Part shown: positions 2,966 to 56,685 of the stretch, piece by piece
Layout: the number at the start of each line of letters is the position of its first letter
Position numbering within the stretch: the stretch's first letter is position 1
Source of the DNA: a virus
IMG/VR virus record: IMGVR_UViG_3300029106_000003
Location: 1,317 to 65,316 of that record
Direction: 5' to 3' (one strand)
Length of the DNA: 64,000 nucleotides
Notes under the pieces: model-generated
Told to the model about the DNA's origin: nothing
What the model saw: only the letters and a program-made list of their open reading frames with translations
The model's database searches: none
Position numbers and translations under genes: made by a program

Positions 2966-3355
2966 TTATATCAAGAAACCCAGTCCTTTCAATTTTGTTA
3001 TCCATTTCACGATGTAAGGGAAGAGCAGCAAGACAATGCCACCGAGAGCCCACCAGCACCATCGGGGAGTCTTGTACTTTACTACCTCGACGGGGTATGG
3101 TACTTGTATGCTTTCCGTCTTGGATATATACAGCGTATCGGTTCTGTCCTTGAACCTATATATGTACTTGTATTGGAACTCCCGTATCGTGTCTCCCGAT
3201 TTCTCGATGAAAACACTGTCCCGCATGTATATGGAATCGAGCTGCACACGATTCAGATACACCGTGTCGCTCTTTGTCGTTTCCACAGGAACATACACAT
3301 GTCTGGTACAACTCGTCGCAGCCAAAAACAACAATAGGAATACGATATGTCTCAT
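2966..3355 (-). CDS. Unimolecular-spanin-like lipoprotein (N-terminal lipobox plus C-terminal TM)
   Basis: Start MRHIVFLLLFLAATSC (signal peptide and Cys lipobox); C-terminal TM WCWWALGGIVLLLFPYIV; its ATG overlaps the endolysin stop as ATGA (3352-3355). Confidence 0.6.
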   Translation of the reverse strand: MRHIVFLLLFLAATSCTRHVYVPVETTKSDTVYLNRVQLDSIYMRDSVFIEKSGDTIREFQYKYIYRFKDRTDTLYISKTESIQVPYPVEVVKYKTPRWCWWALGGIVLLLFPYIVKWITKLKGLGFLI

Positions 3356-3750
3356 AGGCTCAGTATTTGTTTCCGGTTCTTCGATGTCGACACATAAGAC
3401 ACGTGCACCCAACTGTAATTGCTCTCGTCAATCAACTGGTCGAAGGGAAGGTTATCCCGAATCAACTCGAACAGCTTCTTGTTCTCCGTCTTGCTCCCTG
3501 CCGTTATATCCGCCGCCTCGCCCCTCATGTGCTGGCTCGTTTTCGCACCACCCACAGCGGCATTGAGTTTGGAACAACGATAGCCCGAATTGACGGTTAT
3601 CGCCTTCCCGTACATCTCCCGCAGTGGGTCTAAAACATGGGTGACAAGGTTCGACAACTGGGCCGACACTTCGGTCGTCGGGGTATTGTCTATACCCAGT
3701 TTATCGGCCGTTGAACTCTTTGTGAGTTCTTTCATCGTGAAGTATTTCAT
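3352..3750 (-). CDS. Endolysin, peptidase M15 (D-Ala-D-Ala carboxypeptidase / L-Ala-D-Glu peptidase family)
   Basis: Zn-ligand pattern SQHMRGEAAD ... SWVHVS typical of Peptidase_M15_3 phage lysins. Confidence 0.85.
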   Translation of the reverse strand: MKYFTMKELTKSSTADKLGIDNTPTTEVSAQLSNLVTHVLDPLREMYGKAITVNSGYRCSKLNAAVGGAKTSQHMRGEAADITAGSKTENKKLFELIRDNLPFDQLIDESNYSWVHVSYVSTSKNRKQILSL

Positions 3751-26813: not shown

Positions 26814-28325
26814 TCATAAAAAGTCTTTTAGTAATTCTTCGTCACTAATAAAATCATAGTCAAGTGGATAAAATGTATTAGCAAGTGCATCCATATAGTC
26901 AGGCGAACGTTTGATACGTTTCTTGATTTCTTCTTTCGGTTCAATTATAATCCGTCCATCGCTTTGGAACTTCCAGTGTGTCTCGGTTGCTTCCTCCATG
27001 AGTTTATCACAAGGGGGAATAGCCGCCCCAAAACCGTTCTTCGGATTAAGCCAATCACGTAAAGACCAATAGCAGTAAGCTCGCATATTGGCAAATTCAT
27101 ATTGTCCGGTAAGGTCATGCAAGCCTCTTGCACTCTCGGAATACTTGCAAGAATAAACATTCCTATATCCAAGTTCTTCCAGTCGAGAATATACTCCAGC
27201 TCCTTCACCTATTGTATCGATGTACGCTTTGGATTTTTTGTCAGAAAGATATATGATGTGCATTCCTGCGACATGCATGTGATCCGCTTTTCCAGCAGAT
27301 TGGTGAACTTCAAATTTAGGGACATAGTTTCCGTATCGAGGGCAAAGTACACTTTCATCTCGACCCATACCAGCAACATCAGAACCAATCTTACATGATT
27401 TAGACGGTGTAAAACCTTCTTCTTGTAAACGATTCCAATTATCATTTGCAAGCTCTATCCATTCATACGGAATAAGTACATCTTCGGAGACTTTTGGAAA
27501 CATACCAAGTACCTTGACACGAAAAAGGTCATTAGGTCGGTATAGACCACCTTCCCACTTAAAATCACCTTCTCCTTCATTAAAATCTGCCTTCTGAATG
27601 GGAGAACACCAATTTATCACTTTATCTTTTACCCATTCATAATCTACTTGACCGGGAATGACTAATTTCCTTTTGACTACATTCTCTGCATTGAGTGAGT
27701 TTAACCGGAATTTCGCAAATCGATTGGATTTCATGGCTCGTGCGGCATAACCCGTAGTTATGTTAGGATTAAACACGATGAGTAAACGGGAATTTCCCTG
27801 TAAGTTACCTTCAATAGCATTATATGTTGCTTCTGAAATACCCGATGCTTCAGTAACGACGAACATTGTATTCACAGCGTGGAACCCAGACCATGCTTCA
27901 GTATTGTCATCACCAGCCTTAAACCCCGTTAAAAACCATTCTTCATAATCAGTCTTTATACCCGAAGACAACAATCTTCCCGGAAGAAAAACTGCATTTC
28001 TGTACAAGCGTGAGATTTCCGGGATCATAATATTCTGTACCTGCCTTGCTGTTGGTGCAGTCATGGCAATTTTTGTATTCTTGGATAATTTGCCATCTTT
28101 CCAACGTGGAGTGAGGTACATAAAACACATAGCAGCACATGCTGCAACGAAGTCCTTACCACGAGCTGTACCTGATGCAACAGCTGTCATAGGATTGTGC
28201 TGGACAGAGGATATGATAGATTGCTGCTCGCTGTCTAAACGAACCTTCAAAACATCACGGCAAAACCTATTCCAGTCTTCTATCCATGACTTTAAGTAGC
28301 GTATGTCCTTGCGTACATGGCTCAT
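26814..28325 (-). CDS. terL: Terminase large subunit
   Basis: Walker A ASGTARGKD, Walker B-like MFVVTEASG, nuclease acidic motifs GSDVAGMGRDES / IDTIGEGAG / SPDYMDAL. Confidence 0.9.
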   Translation of the reverse strand: MSHVRKDIRYLKSWIEDWNRFCRDVLKVRLDSEQQSIISSVQHNPMTAVASGTARGKDFVAACAAMCFMYLTPRWKDGKLSKNTKIAMTAPTARQVQNIMIPEISRLYRNAVFLPGRLLSSGIKTDYEEWFLTGFKAGDDNTEAWSGFHAVNTMFVVTEASGISEATYNAIEGNLQGNSRLLIVFNPNITTGYAARAMKSNRFAKFRLNSLNAENVVKRKLVIPGQVDYEWVKDKVINWCSPIQKADFNEGEGDFKWEGGLYRPNDLFRVKVLGMFPKVSEDVLIPYEWIELANDNWNRLQEEGFTPSKSCKIGSDVAGMGRDESVLCPRYGNYVPKFEVHQSAGKADHMHVAGMHIIYLSDKKSKAYIDTIGEGAGVYSRLEELGYRNVYSCKYSESARGLHDLTGQYEFANMRAYCYWSLRDWLNPKNGFGAAIPPCDKLMEEATETHWKFQSDGRIIIEPKEEIKKRIKRSPDYMDALANTFYPLDYDFISDEELLKDFL

Positions 28326-33279: not shown

Positions 33280-33426
33280 AAATTCAATCATTCTTCAAGC
33301 TACTTACAAGAACACTTATGCAATTCTTCGGCTTCTTTCAGTCGTGTCAGATAGCAATTTCTATCACCCCGTAAACTGCACAAGCTTTAATGTTCTTGCT
33401 TTTGCTTATCGCTACTATAAGGGTTG

Positions 33427-33496
33427 AGCGGAAACAGGGAATCGAACCCCACTCTTTGGTTGGAATGCCAACGCTCTGCCGATGAGCTATTTCCGC
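33427..33496 (-). tRNA. tRNA-like gene with glycine identity set and an apparent 8-nt anticodon loop (CAUUCCAA)
   Basis: Acceptor GCGGAAA/TTTCCGC, D arm GCTC-ATCGGCA-GAGC, T arm TGGGG-TTCGATT-CCCTG, discriminator T. The anticodon arm pairs only as TTGG/CCAA around CATTCCAA. Confidence 0.6.
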
Positions 33497-44232: not shown

Positions 44233-44834
44233 ACAGCCTCTTTATTGTGGTTCGTTTTCTTAAATCTGGGTTTCTGTGCAACAATTTCTTTGTTTTCACT
44301 TTCTATTTCTACAACATCTACTATTTGTTGTGTCGGAATAGAATATTTCCATAAAGTGGTTTGTCCTTTAATATATTGCAGACTTAGCGTATTTATATTT
44401 TCCCTAAATGTATCTAATGTATATACTATGGAAATGACATGGCATCCTAATTCTTGATTTCGAATTTTATCCTCCTGCTTAGTCCTATTTCGAGTGCTAT
44501 CTGCCAATTTTATGATAAAAACATAACCTTGATATTCAAAAAATAATCGTTCATTTCCAGATATATTTGAAGTAAAAACAAAATGTTCTGAGGTCATCTG
44601 AGCAGAAAGTTCATTTTTTATTGCATTATATATATCTTCATGAAGACAATGAGATATTACGCTCATCGAGTTGAGCCCTTCGCGAAATTTTTCCTGTGTT
44701 TTACTTAAACCTGTTGTAACTCCAATTCTTAAACATTCTTCAAATTTATCGGTCAATACGGATGCTTTAAATTTATCCGAATTGAATTCATGTTCAGCAG
44801 GAAACACTGAGCATTGTATAATTTCTTTTGTCAT
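44229..44834 (-). CDS. Hypothetical protein, first gene of the three-gene operon
   Basis: 201 aa; ATGA overlap with the HTH-M78 gene; TATATTTG -7 box at 44862-44869. Confidence 0.6.
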   Translation of the reverse strand: MTKEIIQCSVFPAEHEFNSDKFKASVLTDKFEECLRIGVTTGLSKTQEKFREGLNSMSVISHCLHEDIYNAIKNELSAQMTSEHFVFTSNISGNERLFFEYQGYVFIIKLADSTRNRTKQEDKIRNQELGCHVISIVYTLDTFRENINTLSLQYIKGQTTLWKYSIPTQQIVDVVEIESENKEIVAQKPRFKKTNHNKEAV

Positions 44835-45232
44835 AAATTCATTTTTTACTATTCATGACAACAAATATATAAAAAATATTCCATTTTCCGACAACATTCT
44901 ATATTAAAATATTCTATCGATGAAAAAACATCTTGTTTTATAGACATATATGACACATCTATAGTAAAAAGGCTATGTAGATTGTGAGTGTACACCGATG
45001 TTTATGAAAACGCATGGTTGGAAATAGTCTAATTACTAAGAGAAATTCAGTTTTAAAAGAAATCCCCATATCTTCACAAATAATGAAGTGCCCCCAAAAA
45101 GTTGTAACAGAAAAGGTGAAAAGAAAGCGATGAAAAATTAATCTCACCGCTTTTTATATGCCTCAAAATAGACGTGTGTAAACAAATGCCAAATTAGAGT
45201 TGTACAAACATCAATTCTTTAAATCAAAGGAA

Positions 45233-45562
45233 TTATCCGTATTTTATCGAGCAAGCCACAAACAAGGCCATAGCGCCGAATATGGCACTTGCTACTGCGA
45301 TGATGGTAGTTATAATCCATTTCCAGTCTATGGGATTGCGCAAGTTAGGATTGGTGGCAAGATAAATTTTTCCATATTTCGTTATGCGGACATCTTCAAG
45401 TTCATGCCCCTCGTTCCATAGACCTTTGACAAGACCTAATCTTTCCAGCGAGTCTACGCACGAAATGAATATATGGTGCGGATAAGTGTTTGGGCAGACA
45501 ATCCCGCTGCTGATTAAACGCAACACTTGCTTCTCCTGTTTTGATAGCTTGATTTGCTTCAT
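45233..45562 (-). CDS. C-terminally membrane-anchored small protein
   Basis: C-terminal TM WIITTIIAVASAIFGAMALFVAC; wHTH-like N-terminus is a guess. Confidence 0.55.
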   Translation of the reverse strand: MKQIKLSKQEKQVLRLISSGIVCPNTYPHHIFISCVDSLERLGLVKGLWNEGHELEDVRITKYGKIYLATNPNLRNPIDWKWIITTIIAVASAIFGAMALFVACSIKYG

Positions 45563-45572
45563 GACCGTTTCT

Positions 45573-46010
45573 CTACAATGACAGCAAAAACTTATACGCT
45601 TTAAGATACTTGTTCAATCTCGGTAAGTCTTCCTCTATTATTTGAGGTAAACGGGTTACGTCCAAATTGTCCTCCAAGTCGTGCAGCTTTACTTGTCTTC
45701 CAATAGGATTCAATCTACACCGTTTTATGAAATCGTCATAGATCTCATCATCGTTACGAGTGACAGAAAGTATAGCATCCACAATATTATGAGGAAAGCC
45801 TTCCATTAGTAAATATTCAGCAGTAACTTCGGTATCTTCTATCGTGTCATGCAATAAAGCTACTATGCGCTCCTCATCTGTTTTGCATCGGTTTGCCACA
45901 CGGATAGGGTGGAAGATGTAGGCTGCTCCAGCTTTATCGGTTTGTCCGCTATGGGCTTTGACGGCGATTTGAAGGGCTTTTTCTAATAGTGAATTTTTAG
46001 TACATGTCAT
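45573..46010 (-). CDS. HD-domain small alarmone hydrolase (SpoT/Mesh1-type)
   Basis: HSGQTDKAGAAYIFHPIRVA and LLHDTIEDT motifs. Confidence 0.8.
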   Translation of the reverse strand: MTCTKNSLLEKALQIAVKAHSGQTDKAGAAYIFHPIRVANRCKTDEERIVALLHDTIEDTEVTAEYLLMEGFPHNIVDAILSVTRNDDEIYDDFIKRCRLNPIGRQVKLHDLEDNLDVTRLPQIIEEDLPRLNKYLKAYKFLLSL

Positions 46011-46227
46011 ATTCTGATTTGGGTATTTCTATACCTCCTAATATTATCTCGCAAACGGTTTCATTTGACTGTGATATTTCCTTTTCATTGCGTCTTCCTT
46101 TGTGCTTAATGAAAGCATTTGTCTTTCCATTTTCAAGAACAAGACGTATTGCAGATTCTTCAAAATCGTCTAAAATATAGACTTCTTCACCCGCTTGTAA
46201 TTTTTTTTGTAGGATATTTGGGTTCAT
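45997..46227 (-). CDS. Small hypothetical protein between the RSH fusion and the hydrolase (candidate cognate antitoxin)
   Basis: 76 aa; overlaps the HD gene by 14 nt. Confidence 0.55.
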   Translation of the reverse strand: MNPNILQKKLQAGEEVYILDDFEESAIRLVLENGKTNAFIKHKGRRNEKEISQSNETVCEIILGGIEIPKSEYDMY

Positions 46228-46251
46228 ATTTATATGTAAAGATAATTATTT

Positions 46252-47871
46252 TTATCGGAAATGACTATAATATTCAATAGATTTTTCTACTATTTTTAGT
46301 GCTTCATTACTTGATTTATCGAGTATGCGCCATTGCTCATAATATTTATGTCCGAGACCACCTTCCATTCCTGTCTCATTATGTATTTCTTCCCAACGTT
46401 TTTTCCCAAGAATACGTTTCGCATCTTCCGGCCTTTCTTTTGCAAAAATCATACGTTCCGTATTAACTTGTATTTCCGCAGTAAGACCATTTGTGGTTCT
46501 TATGTTTACGATGTTTCCACTATATACCATGAATGATTCTGGTTTTTGCCTTTTAAGGCGTAAGAAGCCTTCCGTTTTGTACAGTTCTTCTAACACATCT
46601 TCTATTCGGGACTTCGGAACGATTATGGTTGTTCTTACAGCACCTTTAATATCGTATGGAGTTATACCTTCTGTGATGACTTTTCTTGTGATAGAAGTTG
46701 TACTCTTGAAATTAATAGGCGTAACATAACCACCATTTTTTATTGCGATCCGTTCTGCTATGGACTGTACTTCATCTCCCACTGATGATGCTCGTTTTAC
46801 AATTTCCGAAATGGAACTTTCAACTGTTATTTTCTGATAAACGGATTTATTATCACGCAAAAAGTATGGTAAAGTATTACGTTTTTTTGCTGTGCTGATG
46901 CGCTCTTGATTATCTAATACCCACTTTTTGAAAGCGTCCGGTACGTCTTTAACTTCGTTCACGCTTGCTGTCGTGGCTTCATTCCGACCGTCCCATTCCC
47001 AAAATTCTTCTTCGGTTTTTAGAATGGGTATCTTGTAACACCGGCAAAGGGGATGCCAACCGGTCCATTGGAAGTCTTTCGGGTACTTCCCAGCTAGTAT
47101 ATCGCAAATGTCTTGGAAAGGCTTTCCGTTACAAGTATGATTGTTGCTCAACTTGATTTCATATCCCACCACGAAGTCCATCTGCTGCCAGCGTAGATTT
47201 TCCGCTTGGCGGTATGCCATATTGATTTCGGAAGCAGCCAAACGGATAGAACGATACTCGCAATCCATTGCCCGTGATGCTTTTCCGAACCTTTCCTTGT
47301 AATCTTTTTGTAGTTGCGGGAAATCGAGCAGATATTTGGAGATTTGCTTACTTAATGTAATTGCACTCGTACCTTTTTGAATGGCACATGATATAGCTTC
47401 TTCAAGTTCTTGCTTATACAGAGTCGATTGATTCCACAACTTATCTGATATGGTAAATCCTTTATCCTTACGTTGCTGAAACGCTTTCAATGCATCATTA
47501 TTGGGCTGGTATAGGATTTCGTATTTCTCCTTTCCTATGGTTGCGCCATAAGTTTGCAATACTTTGTTGGCAAGAAGATCTTGAACTTCGTTGCTGTTTT
47601 TCCATTCTTCAGAAGTTCCACTATATATTACAGATCCGATGTCCTCAACGAACCGTTCTTGTAAGTCTCTTATCCGTTTCCTTGTTTGGGGATAATCCGA
47701 CCACATAAACGTCCTATCACTATCAATGGTAAAATCGGTAATTCCGACTATTTTAGCCGCCTCTAAATTCAAATCCTCGTATATGGATTCCACAAGCATG
47801 ACGTACTTGGCGAGCCGTTTATTCAGCTCGCCGTACTTGCGTTTCTGATTTGGAGTTTTTGGCTTTGCCAT
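46252..47871 (-). CDS. Head morphogenesis protein (MuF / SPP1 gp7 family) with a C-terminal RelA/SpoT-like nucleotidyltransferase domain
   Basis: MuF core NHTCNGKPF...GWHPLCRCY (aa ~245-280); C-terminal FKSTTSITRKV, DIKGAVRTTIIV, VYSGNIVNI, TAEIQVNTERM (aa ~385-475). Confidence 0.75.
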   Translation of the reverse strand: MAKPKTPNQKRKYGELNKRLAKYVMLVESIYEDLNLEAAKIVGITDFTIDSDRTFMWSDYPQTRKRIRDLQERFVEDIGSVIYSGTSEEWKNSNEVQDLLANKVLQTYGATIGKEKYEILYQPNNDALKAFQQRKDKGFTISDKLWNQSTLYKQELEEAISCAIQKGTSAITLSKQISKYLLDFPQLQKDYKERFGKASRAMDCEYRSIRLAASEINMAYRQAENLRWQQMDFVVGYEIKLSNNHTCNGKPFQDICDILAGKYPKDFQWTGWHPLCRCYKIPILKTEEEFWEWDGRNEATTASVNEVKDVPDAFKKWVLDNQERISTAKKRNTLPYFLRDNKSVYQKITVESSISEIVKRASSVGDEVQSIAERIAIKNGGYVTPINFKSTTSITRKVITEGITPYDIKGAVRTTIIVPKSRIEDVLEELYKTEGFLRLKRQKPESFMVYSGNIVNIRTTNGLTAEIQVNTERMIFAKERPEDAKRILGKKRWEEIHNETGMEGGLGHKYYEQWRILDKSSNEALKIVEKSIEYYSHFR

Positions 47872-47877
47872 TGCGTA

Positions 47878-48240
47878 TTATTTATTTTCAACCCTGTCAG
47901 GTGCTGGCATTTCCAATAAACGAATAGCTTTAATTGTTTCTTTACCCTCTAGTATTGCTTTACATAAGCGGTGGTATCCATCGGCGATTTGTCCTACATC
48001 ATCAAGAATAATAGGATATTCAAGAGAACATTGATTCACTCGTTTGCACTGAAATATAAAACTATGAAGTTGATTACACTCAAACGGCTCTGCTGTCAAG
48101 TCAATATTCCATAAGGGCATATCAAGTATAGGGTATTCTTTTACTTTTGCAAAGTCATAGAGTGTTTGAGCTTTCCAGATCTTGTCTCCACGATGATATT
48201 CACTTTCGCTAAAAGTTATGTTATCTATAGGAACCTGCAT
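47878..48240 (-). CDS. Small ParB/Srx-like domain protein
   Basis: ...ILDDVGQIADGYHRLCKAIL... DGxHR motif. Confidence 0.55.
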   Translation of the reverse strand: MQVPIDNITFSESEYHRGDKIWKAQTLYDFAKVKEYPILDMPLWNIDLTAEPFECNQLHSFIFQCKRVNQCSLEYPIILDDVGQIADGYHRLCKAILEGKETIKAIRLLEMPAPDRVENK

Positions 48241-48241
48241 A

Positions 48242-48589
48242 TTATTCTTTTTTTATATATACTTTGATTTCACCGGTAACATGGAGTTCATCACCAACTT
48301 TTTCAACGGAGTATTCTATTAGCCCCCTCTGGTTGATTGAGCTTACAATTGATTGGAGAACTTCATCCTTTACTTCTTTGATGAACATTTCATCTGATTT
48401 TCGATTAGACCAACCTTCATCAAGTTTCTTCTTTTTTCGGTAATCCTTGATTTCTTTTTTAGTTCGGGCAAGGCAGATACCAAGCTTCTTTGCTTCGTAG
48501 TTATCAACTCGTTCAATACTACTCAATCTTTCTTGTGGATTGATTTTTTCTGCTAATCTAATAAGCCAGTTTGATATTTTTGTCTTCAT
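48242..48589 (-). CDS. Hypothetical protein
   Basis: ORF track. Confidence 0.55.
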   Translation of the reverse strand: MKTKISNWLIRLAEKINPQERLSSIERVDNYEAKKLGICLARTKKEIKDYRKKKKLDEGWSNRKSDEMFIKEVKDEVLQSIVSSINQRGLIEYSVEKVGDELHVTGEIKVYIKKE

Positions 48590-48607
48590 GATTTTAAGTT
48601 TTAAGCC

Positions 48608-48635
48608 AGCAGCGTAAACATCTGCTTACGCTGCT
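48608..48635. terminator. Perfect 10-bp hairpin (terminator or RNA-stability element)
   Basis: AGCAGCGTAA-8 nt-TTACGCTGCT; a T tract follows only on the plus strand. Confidence 0.35.
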
Positions 48636-48664
48636 TTAACCTTTTTTACAGCTTGGCAGATAGG

Positions 48665-49165
48665 CTATTGTACAATTTCCCAGTCTTCTGCAAACACATC
48701 ACTGATGGATGGTACCCACGAATCAGCACGTCCCGTATTTTCGTTATAGATAAGGCATTGGCTTGTATAGTCAATAAAACCTTTTCCTTTCAGAATAAGG
48801 TCTTTTGCTGATTGAGGAAGCGATTGCATCTTGGGAATGGTATCGCTTTCAATATGTGCAGGCACTTGCTTGAATACCGTCAGGCCTTTGCCGTTCCAGC
48901 CGTTTCTACGGATAGCCCCACCTTGCTTCAAAACTTCGATAGCATCACCGAAACACATAGGAGTTTCTTTCTTGACTTCTCGATATGATTCTTCAAACAA
49001 TTCTTTGGGGGACCAACTTTCATAGCCATATTCAGCACGAGTGTGATATCCAAGCTTGCAAGATTCATGCTCTCCTATTTCACTTTTTACCAAACCTTTA
49101 CGGCAAGCTTCGCCTAATGTCATAGGTTCTGCTTCAATCTGTTTTGTGCTAATGTACTTTTTCAT
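48665..49165 (-). CDS. DUF2829 (Tad2-like) domain protein with a ~65-aa N-terminal extension
   Basis: FGDAIEVLKQGGAIRRNGWNGKGLTVF ... SWVPSISDVFAEDWEIV is the DUF2829 signature. Confidence 0.7.
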   Translation of the reverse strand: MKKYISTKQIEAEPMTLGEACRKGLVKSEIGEHESCKLGYHTRAEYGYESWSPKELFEESYREVKKETPMCFGDAIEVLKQGGAIRRNGWNGKGLTVFKQVPAHIESDTIPKMQSLPQSAKDLILKGKGFIDYTSQCLIYNENTGRADSWVPSISDVFAEDWEIVQ

Positions 49166-49186
49166 GATAGTATATTTATTTACAAA

Positions 49187-49477
49187 TTAAACATCTTCCT
49201 CTTCATAAGCCATCTTTGCACTCATGACACCAACCGAACTTAGCATCCTGATAGAAAGCCCCTTTTGTACGTCAAGCTCAAAAATCATATTGTCATTGAA
49301 TTGAGCGGCAGGGTATTGATACAATAGCGCATAATCCATTCCTTCCAGCTTTGCGTATATACTAAGTGTGCCACTCTTCTCTCTGTCTATCTGCATTACA
49401 CATTTTCCAACAGAAGTAAACTCACAGGAATAGCCCTGTTTTTCTTTACTAAATTCTAGTACATCAGTTTTTGCCAT
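49187..49477 (-). CDS. Hypothetical protein
   Basis: ORF track. Confidence 0.55.
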   Translation of the reverse strand: MAKTDVLEFSKEKQGYSCEFTSVGKCVMQIDREKSGTLSIYAKLEGMDYALLYQYPAAQFNDNMIFELDVQKGLSIRMLSSVGVMSAKMAYEEEDV

Positions 49478-49497
49478 AATATTTATATTTTAGATTA

Positions 49498-50898
49498 TTA
49501 TTCCGGTTCTTCGAATATATTGCTTATCCTGCTTCTGGAAGCATCTGCATCTTCTTTTTGGATTTGGGCAAGAGTTTCTTGTGGATCAGTAGAGATACCT
49601 AAGTTCTTGATGGCCTCTAATTGGCTGACAACTGCTTTTCCACCACTTGCTGTAACCCATTTTTCTATTTCTGACTTTTCATCATTTTGGATAAACGGAG
49701 TTATGATGTGCTCAACCTCAACATTATCTACTTCATTTTTCCAAGAAACATTCATCATTTTTAGAAAGGCTTTGATTACGCTACATTCACGTTCAAATGC
49801 TTCTATCCATGCACCACTTTCATCTCCAACCTTTAAATGAGCGTCAGTAAGTAAAGTCTGCCTTGCATCAAATCCGATATTGCCAAGAGACTTCATGTTT
49901 TCGAAGGAAATATCCGGCATTTGTGATTGTGACCAGAACAACTCAACAAGGGTATCGACATGATATTTTAATGCCTCGATAGATTGTGCCCATGAAACAT
50001 AGGACACGTCCCCGTTTTGTTCTACTCGGTAAACTCTACGGCTTTCTCCTTTATCTTCTCCTCCTTTTATGCCACCTGCTATTTTTAGGATAGGAGCGGA
50101 GTTATATGCTATGACATCGCTATTGCGTGAGAGGGTATATTCGATTTCTTTTCTGATATAGGAAAGACCGTGATAAATGGGAACAGGACGATAAACGTAT
50201 ACTCCAGGTATTTTCAGAATAACGACCGGTTCTGATTTTACTAATTCCCAGCCGTTTCCCTGTTGTTTCCATTTATAATGAATGTTTGCCGTGTATGTCT
50301 CGAAATAGGTAACTTCTTCATTTTTGGCCTTTTTTGTGTATTCAAAAGACATTGCGATCATATCGCCAAGCTCATCAAGTAGAGGGTATAAGCTAACACC
50401 GTCCATTGGTGAGTAGGTTTTGCATTTTAGCTTATATTTACTTTTAAAGCCGTATAGAGTGTTGGGATTCTCAACTGTGTACCAAATGGTGAACACTTCG
50501 CATGAAGCAAAGTAAGCATTGCCTCGCTTAATATTCTCACTGTCAATACGGGCATACTTATATATCGCTTCAATCGCTTTCGCAATACTTTGGCGGGTTT
50601 CATTGTCTTCTATATTGTGATATACACGTTTAACCGGGATAGCGAACATGAATTCAGTCATTCGCTTGGTGAGGAGTTTTTCAAGTCCGATGTAGATACG
50701 GGAAGCTTTTTCTGTATCTCCATTAGAGCGGATCTTATCTTTACGGGTAACTGTGTCAGATACTATATCATGTTCTGTTGGTTCGTAGTCTTTGAGAAGT
50801 TTATCCCATGAGGGGACTGTTACAGACTTTTCTTTCAAATCGTTGATTATGTTATCAACGGGCCGCGTACTGTCTAAGATAGAGGTGATTTCGTCCAT
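49498..50898 (-). CDS. Portal protein (SPP1 gp6-like)
   Basis: 466 aa; size, acidic C-terminus and sequence pattern typical of Gp6-type portals; MuF gene nearby. Confidence 0.75.
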   Translation of the reverse strand: MDEITSILDSTRPVDNIINDLKEKSVTVPSWDKLLKDYEPTEHDIVSDTVTRKDKIRSNGDTEKASRIYIGLEKLLTKRMTEFMFAIPVKRVYHNIEDNETRQSIAKAIEAIYKYARIDSENIKRGNAYFASCEVFTIWYTVENPNTLYGFKSKYKLKCKTYSPMDGVSLYPLLDELGDMIAMSFEYTKKAKNEEVTYFETYTANIHYKWKQQGNGWELVKSEPVVILKIPGVYVYRPVPIYHGLSYIRKEIEYTLSRNSDVIAYNSAPILKIAGGIKGGEDKGESRRVYRVEQNGDVSYVSWAQSIEALKYHVDTLVELFWSQSQMPDISFENMKSLGNIGFDARQTLLTDAHLKVGDESGAWIEAFERECSVIKAFLKMMNVSWKNEVDNVEVEHIITPFIQNDEKSEIEKWVTASGGKAVVSQLEAIKNLGISTDPQETLAQIQKEDADASRSRISNIFEEPE

Positions 50899-50937
50899 TT
50901 GAGTAGAATATTACTTAATATTCGTTTTTACTTGGTG

Positions 50938-50974
50938 CAAATATAATAAAAGTCGCGTAATTTATATCACTTTT
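50938..50974 (-). promoter_or_regulatory. Late-type promoter P5 (portal block)
   Basis: Minus strand AAAAGTGATATAAATTACGCGACTTTT (outer arms conserved, core diverged), 2 nt, then TATATTTG. Confidence 0.5.
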
Positions 50975-50976
50975 AT

Positions 50977-51249
50977 TTATAAATATCCAACTAATTTGAT
51001 AGCTTCATGCATGTAATAAGGGAAATTAATGACAGCAATCTCACCAGAATATCCACAACGCCATAATTCAGCCTGCCAATCTTGTATATCATCACGTTCA
51101 TCAATATTGTACTTCTTCATTAAATCTCTCATGATAGCGCAATCCTCATATCTTTCCGTAACTTTAGCAGAAGAATAAAGATTGAGTAAGACGTATTCTC
51201 CATAAAGGAGGAGTACTTTTTCAAATATATCAAGTCGATCTTGTGTCAT
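50977..51249 (-). CDS. Hypothetical protein
   Basis: ORF track. Confidence 0.55.
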   Translation of the reverse strand: MTQDRLDIFEKVLLLYGEYVLLNLYSSAKVTERYEDCAIMRDLMKKYNIDERDDIQDWQAELWRCGYSGEIAVINFPYYMHEAIKLVGYL

Positions 51250-51257
51250 ATCTATTT

Positions 51258-51575
51258 TTAAAAGTCACACATTATAGTATATTTAGTTTGCAAAATCTTT
51301 AGAACCTTCTCTGTTACATGAATTATATTTTCATTATACCTTCTTACGTTTCTACCATATCCCTGTATGTCTTTGTTTATCTCCTGGCGAAGTGTAGTAC
51401 TTTTAGGCAAACTGATTTCATAGAAATTGCCATCAATTGAAGTTATCAACATATCAGCTTGCTTCTTTTGACAATCAAGTTCTGTTTCTTTGTATTCACC
51501 TTTGGGAATGAAATTAGGATTGGGTACTAAGTAGCCTTCTGCTACTACATTTCCATTTATATCATATACTTTCAT
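51258..51575 (-). CDS. Hypothetical protein
   Basis: ORF track. Confidence 0.55.
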   Translation of the reverse strand: MKVYDINGNVVAEGYLVPNPNFIPKGEYKETELDCQKKQADMLITSIDGNFYEISLPKSTTLRQEINKDIQGYGRNVRRYNENIIHVTEKVLKILQTKYTIMCDF

Positions 51576-51862
51576 AATCGTGTTTTCATGACATTATCAG
51601 TAATTTTGTTCCCTGTACTATCAAATACTTCTATGGTTGGTCTACCTCCGTTATCAATAGGAGAAATAGCCTCTGATGTTTCATATAAAGTTTCTCCGTC
51701 TGTAACCATTATCTGCTTGTCATCTTCAAAACAAAGTACATCTTCACCTTCCCATGATTTTATTATTTCTAACGCTTCTTTATAACTTTCTGCTTCGATA
51801 GAAAACTGAGTACGCTCCCAACATGTTACTTTGCGGTCCTGATAAAAATCAAATGTTTTCAT
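51572..51862 (-). CDS. Hypothetical protein
   Basis: First gene after repeat-promoter R3. Confidence 0.55.
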   Translation of the reverse strand: MKTFDFYQDRKVTCWERTQFSIEAESYKEALEIIKSWEGEDVLCFEDDKQIMVTDGETLYETSEAISPIDNGGRPTIEVFDSTGNKITDNVMKTRL

Positions 51863-51884
51863 TGCTATACTATTTTAGTAAATA

Positions 51885-51990
51885 ATATTGGTTTCTTTTA
51901 GTATTGTAAAGATACTCATTATCAGTGAGTTAACCAAATATTTACAACCTTATTTTGTTCATAATCAGGAGTTTAACTTTTGGGAACTTT
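51885..51990 (-). repeat. R3: promoter-leader repeat (copy 3 of 3, most diverged)
   Basis: Shares ttttagtattgtaaagatactcattatcag.gagttaaccaaatatttaca...agtttaacttttgg with R1 and R2. Confidence 0.75.
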
Positions 51991-52182
51991 ACAATTTCCG
52001 TTTATATCCTGCTTTGTCCCATTATAAAATCTCATCATGTTTATTCTTGTATTAATTTTTTGCTTAATATTTTTCTTTTTGAGTTGTTCACCCCACTGAT
52101 AGGCTTCCTCAATGACACTCTTGCAATGTTTCTTCTCCCAATTCTCGCAGAAAGGATATGACTTGTATATACTCTCAATCAT
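51973..52182 (-). CDS. Small hypothetical protein
   Basis: ORF track. Confidence 0.45.
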   Translation of the reverse strand: MIESIYKSYPFCENWEKKHCKSVIEEAYQWGEQLKKKNIKQKINTRINMMRFYNGTKQDINGNCKVPKS

Positions 52183-54425: not shown

Positions 54426-54962
54426 TCATTTTAAATCGAATATCTTGCTTGAATCCCTAATAGAATCAATAGACATCTTGGCACTCATTTGCCCCATAAA
54501 TTCAGCGAAATCCATCGCCCGATCCCAACTAGACCATCTATGAGTAATCTCTACTAGTTCAAAAGCATTTAGTAATACCAATTTTTCGTTTTTCTCTCTC
54601 AGGTCATTTACAGCATTTCTTACTCTGTGATAAAGCTTGCAATTATATCTTTTTGCGTTATACGGTTCCGCACCTTCTCTTGGTTCAATACTACGATATT
54701 TAACCGAAAACGAAGGAAGTTTATCTTCGCACATTGCATTATATACATCACTCTCTACCGGGCCATATGGCATAGCATAGAAATTATCGAATATATCCAA
54801 AAGGTCATCGCCTCCATCTTTCTTAGGAGCAGCAGCCAAAAACAGCAGCTTCATGGCTGTAAGTTTAGGAAACGGTTTGCCCTTAATCGTTTCATGATTA
54901 TCCCGCCACTCCTCAAAAAGATGGAGCATATAATCAAATGCCTCTATTTTATCTACTTCCAT
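54426..54962 (-). CDS. Second Panacea (DUF4065)-like domain protein
   Basis: KLTAMKLLFLAAAP...FYAMPYGPVESDVY. Confidence 0.6.
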   Translation of the reverse strand: MEVDKIEAFDYMLHLFEEWRDNHETIKGKPFPKLTAMKLLFLAAAPKKDGGDDLLDIFDNFYAMPYGPVESDVYNAMCEDKLPSFSVKYRSIEPREGAEPYNAKRYNCKLYHRVRNAVNDLREKNEKLVLLNAFELVEITHRWSSWDRAMDFAEFMGQMSAKMSIDSIRDSSKIFDLK

Positions 54963-54966
54963 AATT

Positions 54967-55608
54967 TCACTTTACCAGTTCGAAATCATACACAAATACA
55001 TAGGGGTTGTTCTCCCATGTGCCTTTACCGCTTATCTTGTCGATTAAGTATGAATAAGCCCCTTGTGGCGTGCAAAAAGGATCTTTTTTTAATGTCGGAA
55101 TATAATATGCGTCCATAAAATGGGTATCTTCACTGCCGACTTTGCCTTTTATTATTCCCTCTTTCAAACAATCTTCATCTGAAATATCTTGTAACCGTTC
55201 AGCACGTACATTAGTTATGCGGATTTGGTGTGGCATTAGCTCTGGCTTCACATACATTTTATTTGTCCAGCCTGCACCGTTTGGGAATAAATTAGGATTG
55301 CACTCATCATTGTAAAAGGAATTGTAGCTTTGAGCTATGGCTATGATTTCACCTACTTTATACGGGAGTCGGAATATGCTACCACCTTCCAGCTTTGCTC
55401 CATAACCACAGAACTCACAATAAACACTACCATCTTCGTTGACAACCAAACTCATGGGTTTGTCCTTCCAATATGCTGATTTATACCAACAATGTACCGT
55501 AGAACAGTCCTCCGGTTGTGGATTCATTATCCGCCTTGTCTGAGTTTTTATACCTTCAAGTACGGCTTGTGTGAGTCCGTTTTTATCATTGAACATTATT
55601 TTCTTCAT
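54967..55608 (-). CDS. ASCH-like domain protein
   Basis: N-terminus AVLEGIKTQTRRI is typical of ASCH/PUA-like proteins. Confidence 0.55.
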   Translation of the reverse strand: MKKIMFNDKNGLTQAVLEGIKTQTRRIMNPQPEDCSTVHCWYKSAYWKDKPMSLVVNEDGSVYCEFCGYGAKLEGGSIFRLPYKVGEIIAIAQSYNSFYNDECNPNLFPNGAGWTNKMYVKPELMPHQIRITNVRAERLQDISDEDCLKEGIIKGKVGSEDTHFMDAYYIPTLKKDPFCTPQGAYSYLIDKISGKGTWENNPYVFVYDFELVK

Positions 55609-55625
55609 ATTTCAATCGCCATTAA

Positions 55626-55763
55626 TTAAATCCAAATTATAAATACATAATCGCTATTAACTGTACGATTTATATCATTAGTCTCATAAAGCGAAGCTAC
55701 TTTAATAAGTTTTGACTTATCTTCCACTTTTTCAAGTTCGTCAATCAATTCTTGTACTGTCAT
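55626..55763 (-). CDS. Small hypothetical protein (45 aa)
   Basis: Below the track cutoff; MTVQELIDELEKVEDKSKLIKVASL... Confidence 0.35.
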   Translation of the reverse strand: MTVQELIDELEKVEDKSKLIKVASLYETNDINRTVNSDYVFIIWI

Positions 55764-55791
55764 ATTCTTTTCTTTTTAAGTCTTTCAACCT

Positions 55792-56325
55792 CTATTCCTC
55801 CTTTATAATTTCTTTCATGAAACAAATCCAGTGTGTATTAGATCGTTTGCCGGATATATGCCCGAATATTGGTTTTTCAGGTGTGAGTTTGAGAACTTCC
55901 GACACTTTGATGTCGGTCTCGTTCCATTTGAAAATCAAAAATCCTCCGGGTTTCAGGACTCTAAAACATTCTTTAAATCCCTTTGCCAGCATATCACGCC
56001 AATCTGAATACAGAGCTCCATATTTAATTTGTTGGTAGCCTGTTGGCGATGCTTTTTCGTTCAAACTTCCGTACATATCTGCCATCTTTGACTTTCCAGC
56101 ATTCCTTAATAAGTGAGGCGGATCGAAAACTACCATCGAAAAAGATTTATCCTCATAGGGCATATTTGTAAAGTCGGCTTGTATGTCGGGATTTACTTCA
56201 AATAATCTACCATCGCATAAATGAGTAGATACCTTTCGAATGTCTTGAAAAAGAACTCTTTCGTCATGTTTGTCGAAGTAGAACATCTTTCCCCCACAAC
56301 AGGCATCTAATATCGTTTTTCTCAT
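55792..56325 (-). CDS. Small amino-methyltransferase (N6-adenine or N4-cytosine DNA MTase class)
   Basis: Motif I ILDACCGG and motif IV VVFDPPHL. Confidence 0.75.
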   Translation of the reverse strand: MRKTILDACCGGKMFYFDKHDERVLFQDIRKVSTHLCDGRLFEVNPDIQADFTNMPYEDKSFSMVVFDPPHLLRNAGKSKMADMYGSLNEKASPTGYQQIKYGALYSDWRDMLAKGFKECFRVLKPGGFLIFKWNETDIKVSEVLKLTPEKPIFGHISGKRSNTHWICFMKEIIKEE

Positions 56326-56654
56326 TGCTCTCCTCCTTTCTTCAATTCAGCAATGAGGGCATCGGCACATTCTATTGCATATTGCGCTTGTGCCATTGTA
56401 TTTTTGAATCCTGTTGTGTCATTGTTATGTTGTTCAGCAGAAGTCATCATATCTTTGGCTATCTCATACCTGCGTTGCTCCCAATCAATGTTCTTGTGTT
56501 TTTCTTCTTTAATAAATTCAAGCTCTGATTGCACGTATGTACACCAACTACGCTTGTTATCAACATATTGACGCTCCACTCCTCTTTTGGTGATAATATT
56601 TTCTATCCGTGATACCTCTATGACTTCGCCAGTCGATTTAATTTTTGCTTTCAT
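56322..56654 (-). CDS. Hypothetical protein
   Basis: ORF track; ATGA overlap with the next gene. Confidence 0.55.
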   Translation of the reverse strand: MKAKIKSTGEVIEVSRIENIITKRGVERQYVDNKRSWCTYVQSELEFIKEEKHKNIDWEQRRYEIAKDMMTSAEQHNNDTTGFKNTMAQAQYAIECADALIAELKKGGEQ

Positions 56655-56685
56655 TGTTCTCCTCCTTTCATAAGTCCGGTTTCTC

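Follow-up and report, generated by a model that had tools for sequence, protein, structure and literature searches.

A Tad2-family gene with a widespread N-terminal module between the portal and MuF genes of a gut Bacteroidales phage

The gene considered here lies on the minus strand at positions 48665 to 49165 of a 64,000-nucleotide stretch of viral DNA (positions 1,317 to 65,316 of IMG/VR record IMGVR_UViG_3300029106_000003; hereafter, the window). The window represents a large, mostly minus-strand Bacteroidales phage genome with genes for a tape measure protein, a major capsid protein, a large terminase, a portal, a MuF protein, and methyltransferases. The analysis established the identities of the domains, the conservation of their residues, homologies, distribution, and genomic surroundings; from these, a quaternary structure (a tetramer), a ligand, a strand swap, and a time of expression are proposed. 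Given all of these findings, the product is likely to be a two-domain phage counter-defense protein, in which a Tad2 sponge for an immune signaling molecule is joined to an accessory N-terminal domain, designated here the N-module. It is a further example of a well-studied sponge family, found in an abundant human-gut Bacteroides phage lineage. Judged from sequence, two points go beyond routine annotation: the N-module, an unnamed sponge-associated domain, and a second ligand pocket that appears to be conserved but re-specified.

The gene and its domains

The gene and its parts are as follows.

48665 to 49165, minus strand: Tad2 gene, with an ATG start and 166 residues plus stop, encoding the N-module, a linker, and the Tad2 domain (open reading frame [ORF] list and sequence)
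48971 to 49165, minus strand: N-module, residues 1-65, a small beta/alpha domain
48668 to 48958, minus strand: Tad2-like (DUF2829) domain, residues 70-166
48761 to 48865, minus strand: long beta2-beta5 insertion, residues 101-135 (35 residues)

A match to phrog_872 spans the full length of the product (E 1.5e-36, PHROG search), and 502 indexed blocks of public assemblies contain the exact 166-residue protein.

The Tad2 domain and its gcADPR pocket

PF11195 (Tad2-like, formerly DUF2829) matches residues 70-165 over profile positions 1-73 of 73 with 66.5 bits (E 3e-18), against a curated cut-off of 25 bits. It is the sole Pfam match of the protein; the Sequestin (PF21825) and Acb4 (PF13876) domains are absent. 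When the protein was compared by phmmer with all PDB sequences, only Tad2 proteins were retrieved, namely SptTad2 (8WJD; E 1.4e-15, gapless over 94-96 residues), HgmTad2/AcrIIA7 (8KBI; E 8.5e-11), pdAcrIIA7 (9KZR; E 3.2e-10), SPO1 Tad2, and ModTad2, and the identity of the domain to SptTad2 and HgmTad2 is about 32%. An AlphaFold2 monomer model of the full protein has a mean predicted local distance difference test score (pLDDT) of 76.7. For the Tad2 part, this score is 57-84, with a predicted TM-score (pTM) of 0.45, and such moderate values are as expected if a monomer of an obligate tetramer has been modeled. Of the Foldseek matches of the model to PDB entries, the 24 at E<=1e-3 are without exception Tad2 structures, with a probability of 1.00 and target TM values of 0.59-0.80.

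The original prediction, made from the letters alone, had proposed a C-terminal DUF2829/Tad2 domain, a sponge identity, and a structure prediction with comparison to Tad2 as a check. The domain has been borne out by the Pfam match, and the peptides quoted for it are exact; the predicted fold, in a monomer model, is that of Tad2. The Pfam score, the PDB sequence matches, the Foldseek result, and the gcADPR (glycocyclic ADP-ribose) residues described below all agree, and on this evidence the gene is taken to be a real Tad2-family sponge gene and an addition to the known family.

In HgmTad2, the W21A/N22A and S90A/T92A/D93A substitutions abolish gcADPR binding, and G23, W87, and L88 are contacts (PMC10680739). 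In the alignment, W21/N22 correspond to W90/N91 of the present protein and S90/T92/D93 to S153/S155/D156, while the three contacts correspond to G92, W150, and V151. The T-to-S and L-to-V changes in this pocket would be conservative ones, and each of W90, N91, G92, W150, V151, S153, S155, and D156 is 94-100% conserved in the 120 closest homologues. Because both the validated residues and the contacts are kept, the gcADPR pocket is intact at the sequence level. The same fold, with the same gcADPR motifs at both domain ends, is found in the family's founding member, SPO1 Tad2 (gp34.65; 8SME-8SMG); however, in that protein the insertion is short (24 residues), the second pocket is occluded, and an N-terminal domain is lacking. 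SptTad2 (8WJD) and HgmTad2/AcrIIA7 (8KBI-8KBM, 8WJC) are long-insertion sponges from Bacteroidota elements, and they share the WNG motif and the W..S.(T/S)D motif with the present protein.

A conserved but altered second pocket

HgmTad2 and SptTad2 bind cyclic di-GMP (cGG) and cyclic GMP-AMP (cGAMP) in a separate pocket that is made by the long beta2-beta5 insertion (PMC10680739). In HgmTad2, S47A, F70A, and R31A/N85A each abolish this binding; R31 and N85 read the guanine, S47 binds the phosphate, and F70 stacks on the base (PMC10680739). The insertion of the present protein has 35 residues, compared with 41 in HgmTad2 and 24 in SPO1 Tad2, and it belongs to the region modeled with lower confidence (pLDDT 57-64). 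Relative to HgmTad2, the pocket positions read R31 to Q100, L36 to I105, S47 to S115, F70 to Y133, and N85 to D148. Thus, like SptTad2 and HgmTad2, the present protein has the long insertion, the phosphate-binding serine (S115, identical), and an aromatic residue at the base-stacking position (Y133). The guanine-reading pair, however, is not retained: SptTad2, like HgmTad2, has R and N where Q100 and D148 are fixed in the present clade. The two crystallized proteins also differ in having no 65-residue N-terminal domain.

Since two of the four validated residues are replaced, binding of cGG or cGAMP cannot be assumed, and because Q100/D148 stand in place of R/N, the protein is kept out of the cGG/cGAMP-binding Tad2 subclass of HgmTad2, SptTad2, and SaTad2. 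The suggestion that other cyclic nucleotides, such as those of cyclic-oligonucleotide-based antiphage signaling systems (CBASS), might be ligands therefore holds for the presence of the dinucleotide-pocket insertion, but activity is not inferable given R31 to Q100 and N85 to D148. Yet Q100, S115, Y133, and D148 are each invariant, in 120 of 120 close homologues, and this strict conservation argues for a functional, re-specified second pocket. Judging by these residues, the second pocket of this Bacteroidales clade probably binds a ligand other than cGG/cGAMP, or none. A conserved pocket with altered base-reading residues makes this clade a good place to look for a new ligand specificity among gut Bacteroidales, from which cGG-based CBASS has been reported.

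The N-module: an unnamed domain joined to sponges

The N-terminal part had been described as an extension of about 65 residues preceding the Tad2 domain. There are indeed 65-69 residues outside Tad2, but they are not a mere extension; they belong to an independent and widespread domain. Residues 1-65 match PHROG families separately from the Tad2 part. The hallmarks of the N-module in the conservation table are Y4-I5-(G/S)6-x-K8, A12-x-P14-M15, G39-Y40, Y48-x-S50-W51-S52-P53, F57, and Y61. No Pfam match was obtained even at E 10, and none in NCBIfam or PDB, either with the single sequence or with a 92-sequence profile. An AlphaFold2 model of the N-module alone has a pLDDT of 92.6 and a pTM of 0.76, with a beta-alpha-beta-beta-alpha topology. 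On the strength of this model, the 65-residue stretch is considered an autonomous domain rather than a simple extension. Its mean net charge is -1.4, that is, slightly acidic, unlike basic sponge pockets.

An exhaustive HMMER search of 1.84 billion 50%-identity cluster representatives found the N-module in 4,471 at E<=1e-3 and in 1,743 at E<=1e-10, and in these representatives it nearly always occupies residues 1-65. The family is spread over phages of several phyla. By tblastn, it is present in 180 sequenced phage genomes, among them those of coliphages, of Vibrio, Klebsiella, Pseudomonas, Pectobacterium, and Clostridium phages, and of crAss-like phages; 41 of the 180 carry the whole N-module plus Tad2 architecture. 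The hits in sequenced phages are labeled variously as "anti-CRISPR protein," "Thoeris anti-defense 2-like," "gp49," "Dec protein," or hypothetical.

The partners of the N-module were examined in 99 representatives of at least 119 residues among the cluster matches listed, with the following counts.

Tad2 (PF11195): 40 members
Sequestin (PF21825): 40 members
Acb4 (PF13876): 11 members
WDGH: 1 member
OmpA: 1 member

Tad2, Sequestin, or Acb4 is carried by about 85% of these 99 representatives. Sequestin is a validated sponge for 3' cyclic ADP-ribose (3'cADPR) that was discovered via its fusions to Tad2 and Acb4 (PMC12265669), and Acb4 is a validated cGAMP sponge (PMC11722364). Close relatives of the present protein form a modular series: N-module plus Tad2, N-module plus PF21825 plus Tad2, and N-module plus WDGH (PF25311) plus Tad2 (P0073). 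In prophages of Bacteroides finegoldii and Phocaeicola vulgatus, the N-module-Sequestin-Tad2 proteins (such as P0042 and P0062; 235-237 residues) have the same N-module and a Tad2 domain that is 93-97% identical, but an additional Sequestin domain lies between the two modules. The present protein is the minimal form. Odd architectures also occur, with two or three tandem N-modules (P0273, P0359) or with Acb4 followed by a C-terminal N-module (P0316). In several other proteins (such as P0288, P0295, P0317, P0354, and P0373), the N-module is joined to C-terminal domains outside known families, which are candidate new sponge or anti-defense domains.

A fourth validated sponge family is reached through RyR Tad, which is gp68 of Pectobacterium phage CB1 and was described in a June 2026 preprint (bioRxiv 10.64898/2026.06.04.730250). 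An hhalign comparison of the N-module profile with gp73 of Pectobacterium phage Nepra, the RyR Tad orthologue, gave a match with a probability of 97.5% (E 6.3e-12) over residues 4-75. Nepra gp73 has H129, W132, K147, H154, K170, and D171, all six ligand residues, exactly where they were published for gp68. The N-module therefore belongs to the family of the RyR Tad N-terminal domain and is joined to four validated sponge families. The layout of RyR Tad is the same, with an N-module followed by a gcADPR-sponge domain; however, its C-terminal sponge is unrelated, an all-helical RyR Repeat12-like dimer as opposed to the tetramer proposed for the Tad2 domain here, and its gene adjoins that for DNA primase in N4-like phages, whereas the present gene lies in the head module. 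In the RyR Tad crystal, the N-terminal domain is swapped in the dimer, such that beta1 is inserted into the other protomer, where it completes a sheet of five strands, and the N-terminal domain alone is inactive against type I Thoeris (bioRxiv 10.64898/2026.06.04.730250). In the monomer model of the present N-module, the conserved residues 1-10 lie as coil beside a three-stranded sheet; Y4, I5, G6, and K8 are at least 95% conserved and yet are modeled as coil. A conserved coil of this kind is compatible with a strand swap. Given this comparison, the preferred reading of the N-module is that it would serve as an accessory strand-swap dimerization module.

Other identities were considered. Another Bacteroidales Tad2 protein with an N-terminal add-on is pdAcrIIA7 (9KZR), whose head permits tetramerization and cyclic-nucleotide binding (PMC13133391). 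That head is acidic and consists of 48 residues in two long helices, compared with 65 residues of beta-alpha-beta-beta-alpha topology in the N-module; there is no detectable sequence similarity between them, and an identity of the two was rejected. The pdAcrIIA7 head precedes Tad2 where Bacteroidales relatives carry the helical Sequestin; to regard it as a truncated Sequestin-like remnant is speculation. In a rough comparison, an identity with Lockin or Acb5 is also unsupported, as neither the Lockin N-termini, deduced from primers, nor the key residues R10, W38, and H61 of Acb5A fit.

In the single-sequence search, many seeming stand-alone N-modules were frameshifted fragments of the present gene, and these were discounted; genuine stand-alone N-module genes do exist. 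A search of three lineages for separate known sponge genes beside stand-alone N-module genes was negative, the overlapping downstream ORFs having no sponge-family matches, and a Sequestin gene lies 2.4 kb from one stand-alone copy. Taken together, the N-module is a very large family without an entry in Pfam, NCBIfam, or PDB, and nearly every multi-domain member joins it to a sponge (Tad2, Sequestin, Acb4, or RyR Tad). It also offers an inexpensive sequence tag by which new sponge families could be sought among its uncharacterized partners.

Proposed function and alternative explanations

In the model favored here, the C-terminal Tad2 domain most likely assembles as the homotetramer of its family. 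The tetramer would sequester an ADP-ribose-derived signal made by a protein with a TIR (Toll/interleukin-1 receptor) domain, most probably the 1''-3' or 1''-2' gcADPR of type I Thoeris. The signal would be held in two inter-protomer pockets, such that the Thoeris effector stays inactive. The long insertion would form a second pocket at the dimer interface, with the altered residue set Q100/D148. By homology to the N-terminal domain of RyR Tad, the N-module is most likely a strand-swapped dimer that provides an extra oligomerization interface, and by itself it would not neutralize type I Thoeris.

Several points weigh against this model. The Tad2 part was modeled with only moderate confidence and as a monomer, which does not display the pocket geometry. 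Some adenine-side pocket residues differ from those of HgmTad2 (M76 to I139, A78 to N141, T82 to G145, and V84 to A147). Tad2 homologues vary in ligand, with histidine-ADP-ribose (His-ADPR), N7-cADPR, cyclic UMP and cyclic CMP (cUMP/cCMP), and cyclic dinucleotides all reported (PMC12393519), and gcADPR is therefore the most likely ligand rather than a certain one. The largest functional screen left out fused Tad2 forms with extra domains (PMC12393519). The role given to the N-module as a strand-swapped unit is carried over from a single distant homologue known from a preprint, while stand-alone genes, tandem copies, and reversed domain order suggest that the N-module may have a function of its own. 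Finally, no promoter or terminator is assignable near the gene.

The ligand is the point at which a first alternative departs from the model. Inhibition of CBASS, of Pycsar, and of three types of Thoeris is known within the Tad2 family, whose specificity has shifted repeatedly, and MoTad2 takes cUMP in the second, interface pocket (PMC12393519). The present protein could then be a sponge for another signal, with the conserved pocket binding the His-ADPR of type II Thoeris or the N7-cADPR of type IV, or with the variant second pocket as the main site for a cyclic mononucleotide with a pyrimidine base or for a dinucleotide other than cGG. The four unlike adenine-side residues would fit such a change, and the strict fixation of Q100 and D148 in the clade is more suggestive of a changed pocket under selection than of decay. 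The paper on His-ADPR gives no residues that separate binders of that signal from gcADPR binders. However, the majority of tested Tad2 homologues inhibit type I Thoeris, and only about 1% of Tad2 proteins have been estimated to be without the gcADPR residues (Li et al., PMC10680739). In addition, the validated W/N and S/T/D residues are retained here, and SptTad2 and HgmTad2, the nearest relatives with solved structures, derive from elements of Bacteroidota, HgmTad2 being a gcADPR binder. A sponge for another signal is consequently considered an unlikely explanation, though one to be taken seriously.

It has also been considered that the N-module might itself be an anti-defense effector, either a sponge or an inhibitor of another system, in which case the protein would be a dual counter-defense fusion like Acb4-Tad2 or Acb4-Sequestin. 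The guilt-by-fusion logic that led to Sequestin (PMC12265669) can be applied here, as the partners of the N-module are almost exclusively validated sponges. Furthermore, the N-module is frequently a stand-alone gene, the tandem copies and the copy placed C-terminal to Acb4 are of the same tendency, as is the Sequestin gene near a stand-alone copy, and the RyR Tad N-terminal domain has been tried against a single defense system only. Set against the accessory role drawn from RyR Tad, an effector role for the N-module is judged improbable, on a par with the sponge for another signal. A broader proposal, in which the N-module, with its approximately 4,500 clusters, would be a further counter-defense unit and the Q100/D148 pocket would also bind a signal new to Tad2, is likewise held to be doubtful.

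As opposed to the sequestration of a nucleotide, it could be asked whether the protein is an anti-CRISPR of the AcrIIA7 type, which would hold the trans-activating CRISPR RNA (tracrRNA) in the tetramer's basic groove and so block Cas9 loading. It belongs to the same family as AcrIIA7/HgmTad2, as the matches to 8KBI and 9KZR attest, and some homologues in sequenced phages are annotated as anti-CRISPR proteins. AcrIIA7 was reported in 2026 to sequester tracrRNA, with K58, K66, and K71 needed and K93 and R101 contributing (PMC13133391). Yet just two of these five basic residues are kept in the present protein (pdAcrIIA7 K58 to K80 and K71 to K93), while K66 to N88, K93 to Q114, and R101 to D122 are losses, and K66 is one of the three positions at which mutation abolishes binding (PMC13133391). 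In addition, the net charge of the Tad2 domain is -2, the N-terminal head of pdAcrIIA7 blocks the binding of single-guide RNA (PMC13133391) and the present protein also has an N-terminal domain, and the anti-CRISPR activity was not reproduced by another laboratory (PMC10680739). This explanation is therefore given very little credence, far less than either of the two before it.

Genomic context, mobility, and expression

The two-domain sponge proposed above is encoded in the following surroundings.

49498 to 50898, minus strand: portal protein, PF05133 SPP1_portal (E 3.3e-33) and phrog_64 (E 3.3e-49)
49187 to 49477, minus strand: 96-residue ORF, 21 nucleotides from the Tad2 start and 20 nucleotides after the portal stop, kept beside the Tad2 gene in related phages L002-L007
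48608 to 48635, minus strand: stem-loop with a perfect 12-bp stem and no U-tract, in the 75-nucleotide gap after the Tad2 stop
48242 to 48589, minus strand: 115-residue ORF, downstream of the Tad2 gene, kept in L002-L007
47878 to 48240, minus strand: 120-residue ORF, downstream, phrog_17560 (function unassigned; E 8.7e-17)
46252 to 47871, minus strand: MuF-like head-morphogenesis protein, phrog_7625 (E 7.9e-93), with a variable C-terminal domain

The original prediction that four small ORFs separate the portal and MuF genes is correct; they are co-oriented and encode 96, 166, 115, and 120 residues. That the Tad2 gene was "inserted" there holds for its location only. The order portal, 96-residue ORF, Tad2, 115-residue ORF, 120-residue ORF, MuF recurs in the metagenomic relatives L003-L007 and, with a fourth ORF of only 72 residues, in L002; since the block is conserved in relatives, there has been no recent insertion in the present genome. 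The 96-residue ORF has no match in Pfam, PHROG, NCBIfam, or PDB, the 115-residue ORF has no significant match in the same four, and the 120-residue ORF has none in Pfam or PDB. With three neighbors lacking an informative match in these databases, a reading of the four-ORF block as an anti-defense island is unsupported. The 120-residue ORF contains a "DGYHR" motif, which by eye is like that of ParB/sulfiredoxin but has no profile or PDB support.

No close isolate relative of the window was found among sequenced phages by nucleotide comparison, and G+C content in 2-kb windows is about 32-51%, mostly 35-41%. Within 44500-52000, nucleotide similarity to sequenced phages is confined to the Tad2 gene, which is 88.5% identical to a gene of Bacteroides (salyersiae) phage BS-TP2, whose product is 92.8% identical and whose slot lies between the HK97 gp10-like and DUF3168 genes. 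By this comparison, the Tad2 gene looks mobile and moron-like, and it would move as a cassette between gut Bacteroidales phages. In Enterobacteria phage IME10 (a P22-like coliphage, JN600960), positions 3001-3498 hold an unannotated, full-length N-module plus Tad2 gene between Rz and the large terminase gene, and in N4-like phages the genes for N-module proteins lie beside DNA primase. That the protein is instead an accessory of virion structure or assembly, as its place between portal and MuF, that of its homologue between the head-tail connector genes of BS-TP2, and a few "decoration protein" annotations of N-module matches might suggest, is the least probable of the explanations considered, as the Tad2 domain and its pocket residues are intact and the slots (portal/MuF here, connector genes in BS-TP2, lysis/terminase in IME10, by DNA primase in N4-like phages) are not equivalent and therefore indicate moron behavior rather than a structural component.

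The DUF2829 genes of Bacteroides phage BF1-TP2 and Parabacteroides phages PF672P1/P2 begin with a stretch 86-88% identical to the first approximately 60 nucleotides of the present gene (49105-49165, minus strand; MKKYI.TKQIEAEPMT...) but are otherwise unmatched. Such a common 5' end of DUF2829 genes may be a handle for recombinational domain shuffling. Elsewhere in the window, at 54739-56656, about 1.5 kb with four hypothetical genes is 95.7% identical to crAss-like phage cr128_1, a similarity that indicates that unrelated phages of gut Bacteroidales have recently exchanged accessory genes.

As for expression, the gaps on the portal side of the Tad2 gene are 20-21 nucleotides, and promoter scans near the gene (for sigma-70 sites and for the Bacteroides TTTG/TAnnTTTG motif) gave no site above chance. 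Because of the shared strand, these short portal-side gaps, and the lack of a recognizable promoter, co-transcription with the portal/MuF head genes is probable, and the late expression that had been proposed is plausible on the same grounds. Downstream, an 86-nucleotide gap region folds at -24.4 kcal/mol (z -2.74 relative to shuffles). The stem-loop at 48608-48635 was not called as an intrinsic terminator in the terminator scan, and it could act in RNA stability or mark the boundary of a cassette.

From the phage and prophage relatives, the host would be a Bacteroides or Phocaeicola species. A literature search on Thoeris in Bacteroidales yielded nothing decisive and no direct evidence on Thoeris in this host. 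Bacteroides has been reported to have cGG-producing CBASS (CdnE with TIR- or transmembrane [TM]-STING effectors) (Li et al., PMC10680739), and it is on such published statements that the earlier proposal of TIR- or CBASS-type defense in the host lineage would rest.

A few further features of the window were observed. The portal/MuF block (46252-50898) lies about 18 kb from the large terminase/major capsid region (26814-28325), with regulators and accessory genes between them; in L005 and L007, the two are adjacent. The MuF-like protein has 539 residues, and its C-terminal approximately 200 residues differ among syntenic relatives, whose proteins have 554 residues with ADPrib_exo_Tox (L005/L006) or otherwise 550, 380, or 538 residues. 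In the region 45573-47871 (minus strand), the MuF gene is followed by a 76-residue ORF with a weak match to Tis1 immunity proteins and a 145-residue HD protein similar to the RelA/SpoT hydrolase region (TIGR00691, E 4.5e-15). No profile identifies a toxin domain in the MuF-like protein; nevertheless, the arrangement resembles a polymorphic MuF toxin accompanied by immunity genes, and it may pair a toxin of the alarmone-synthetase type with a small alarmone hydrolase. Finally, ARAGORN reports a tRNA-like gene at 33426-33496 (minus strand) with a two-base "anticodon" call, which stands beside a tRNA-Cys gene, and a tRNA-Gly gene at 20805-20876.

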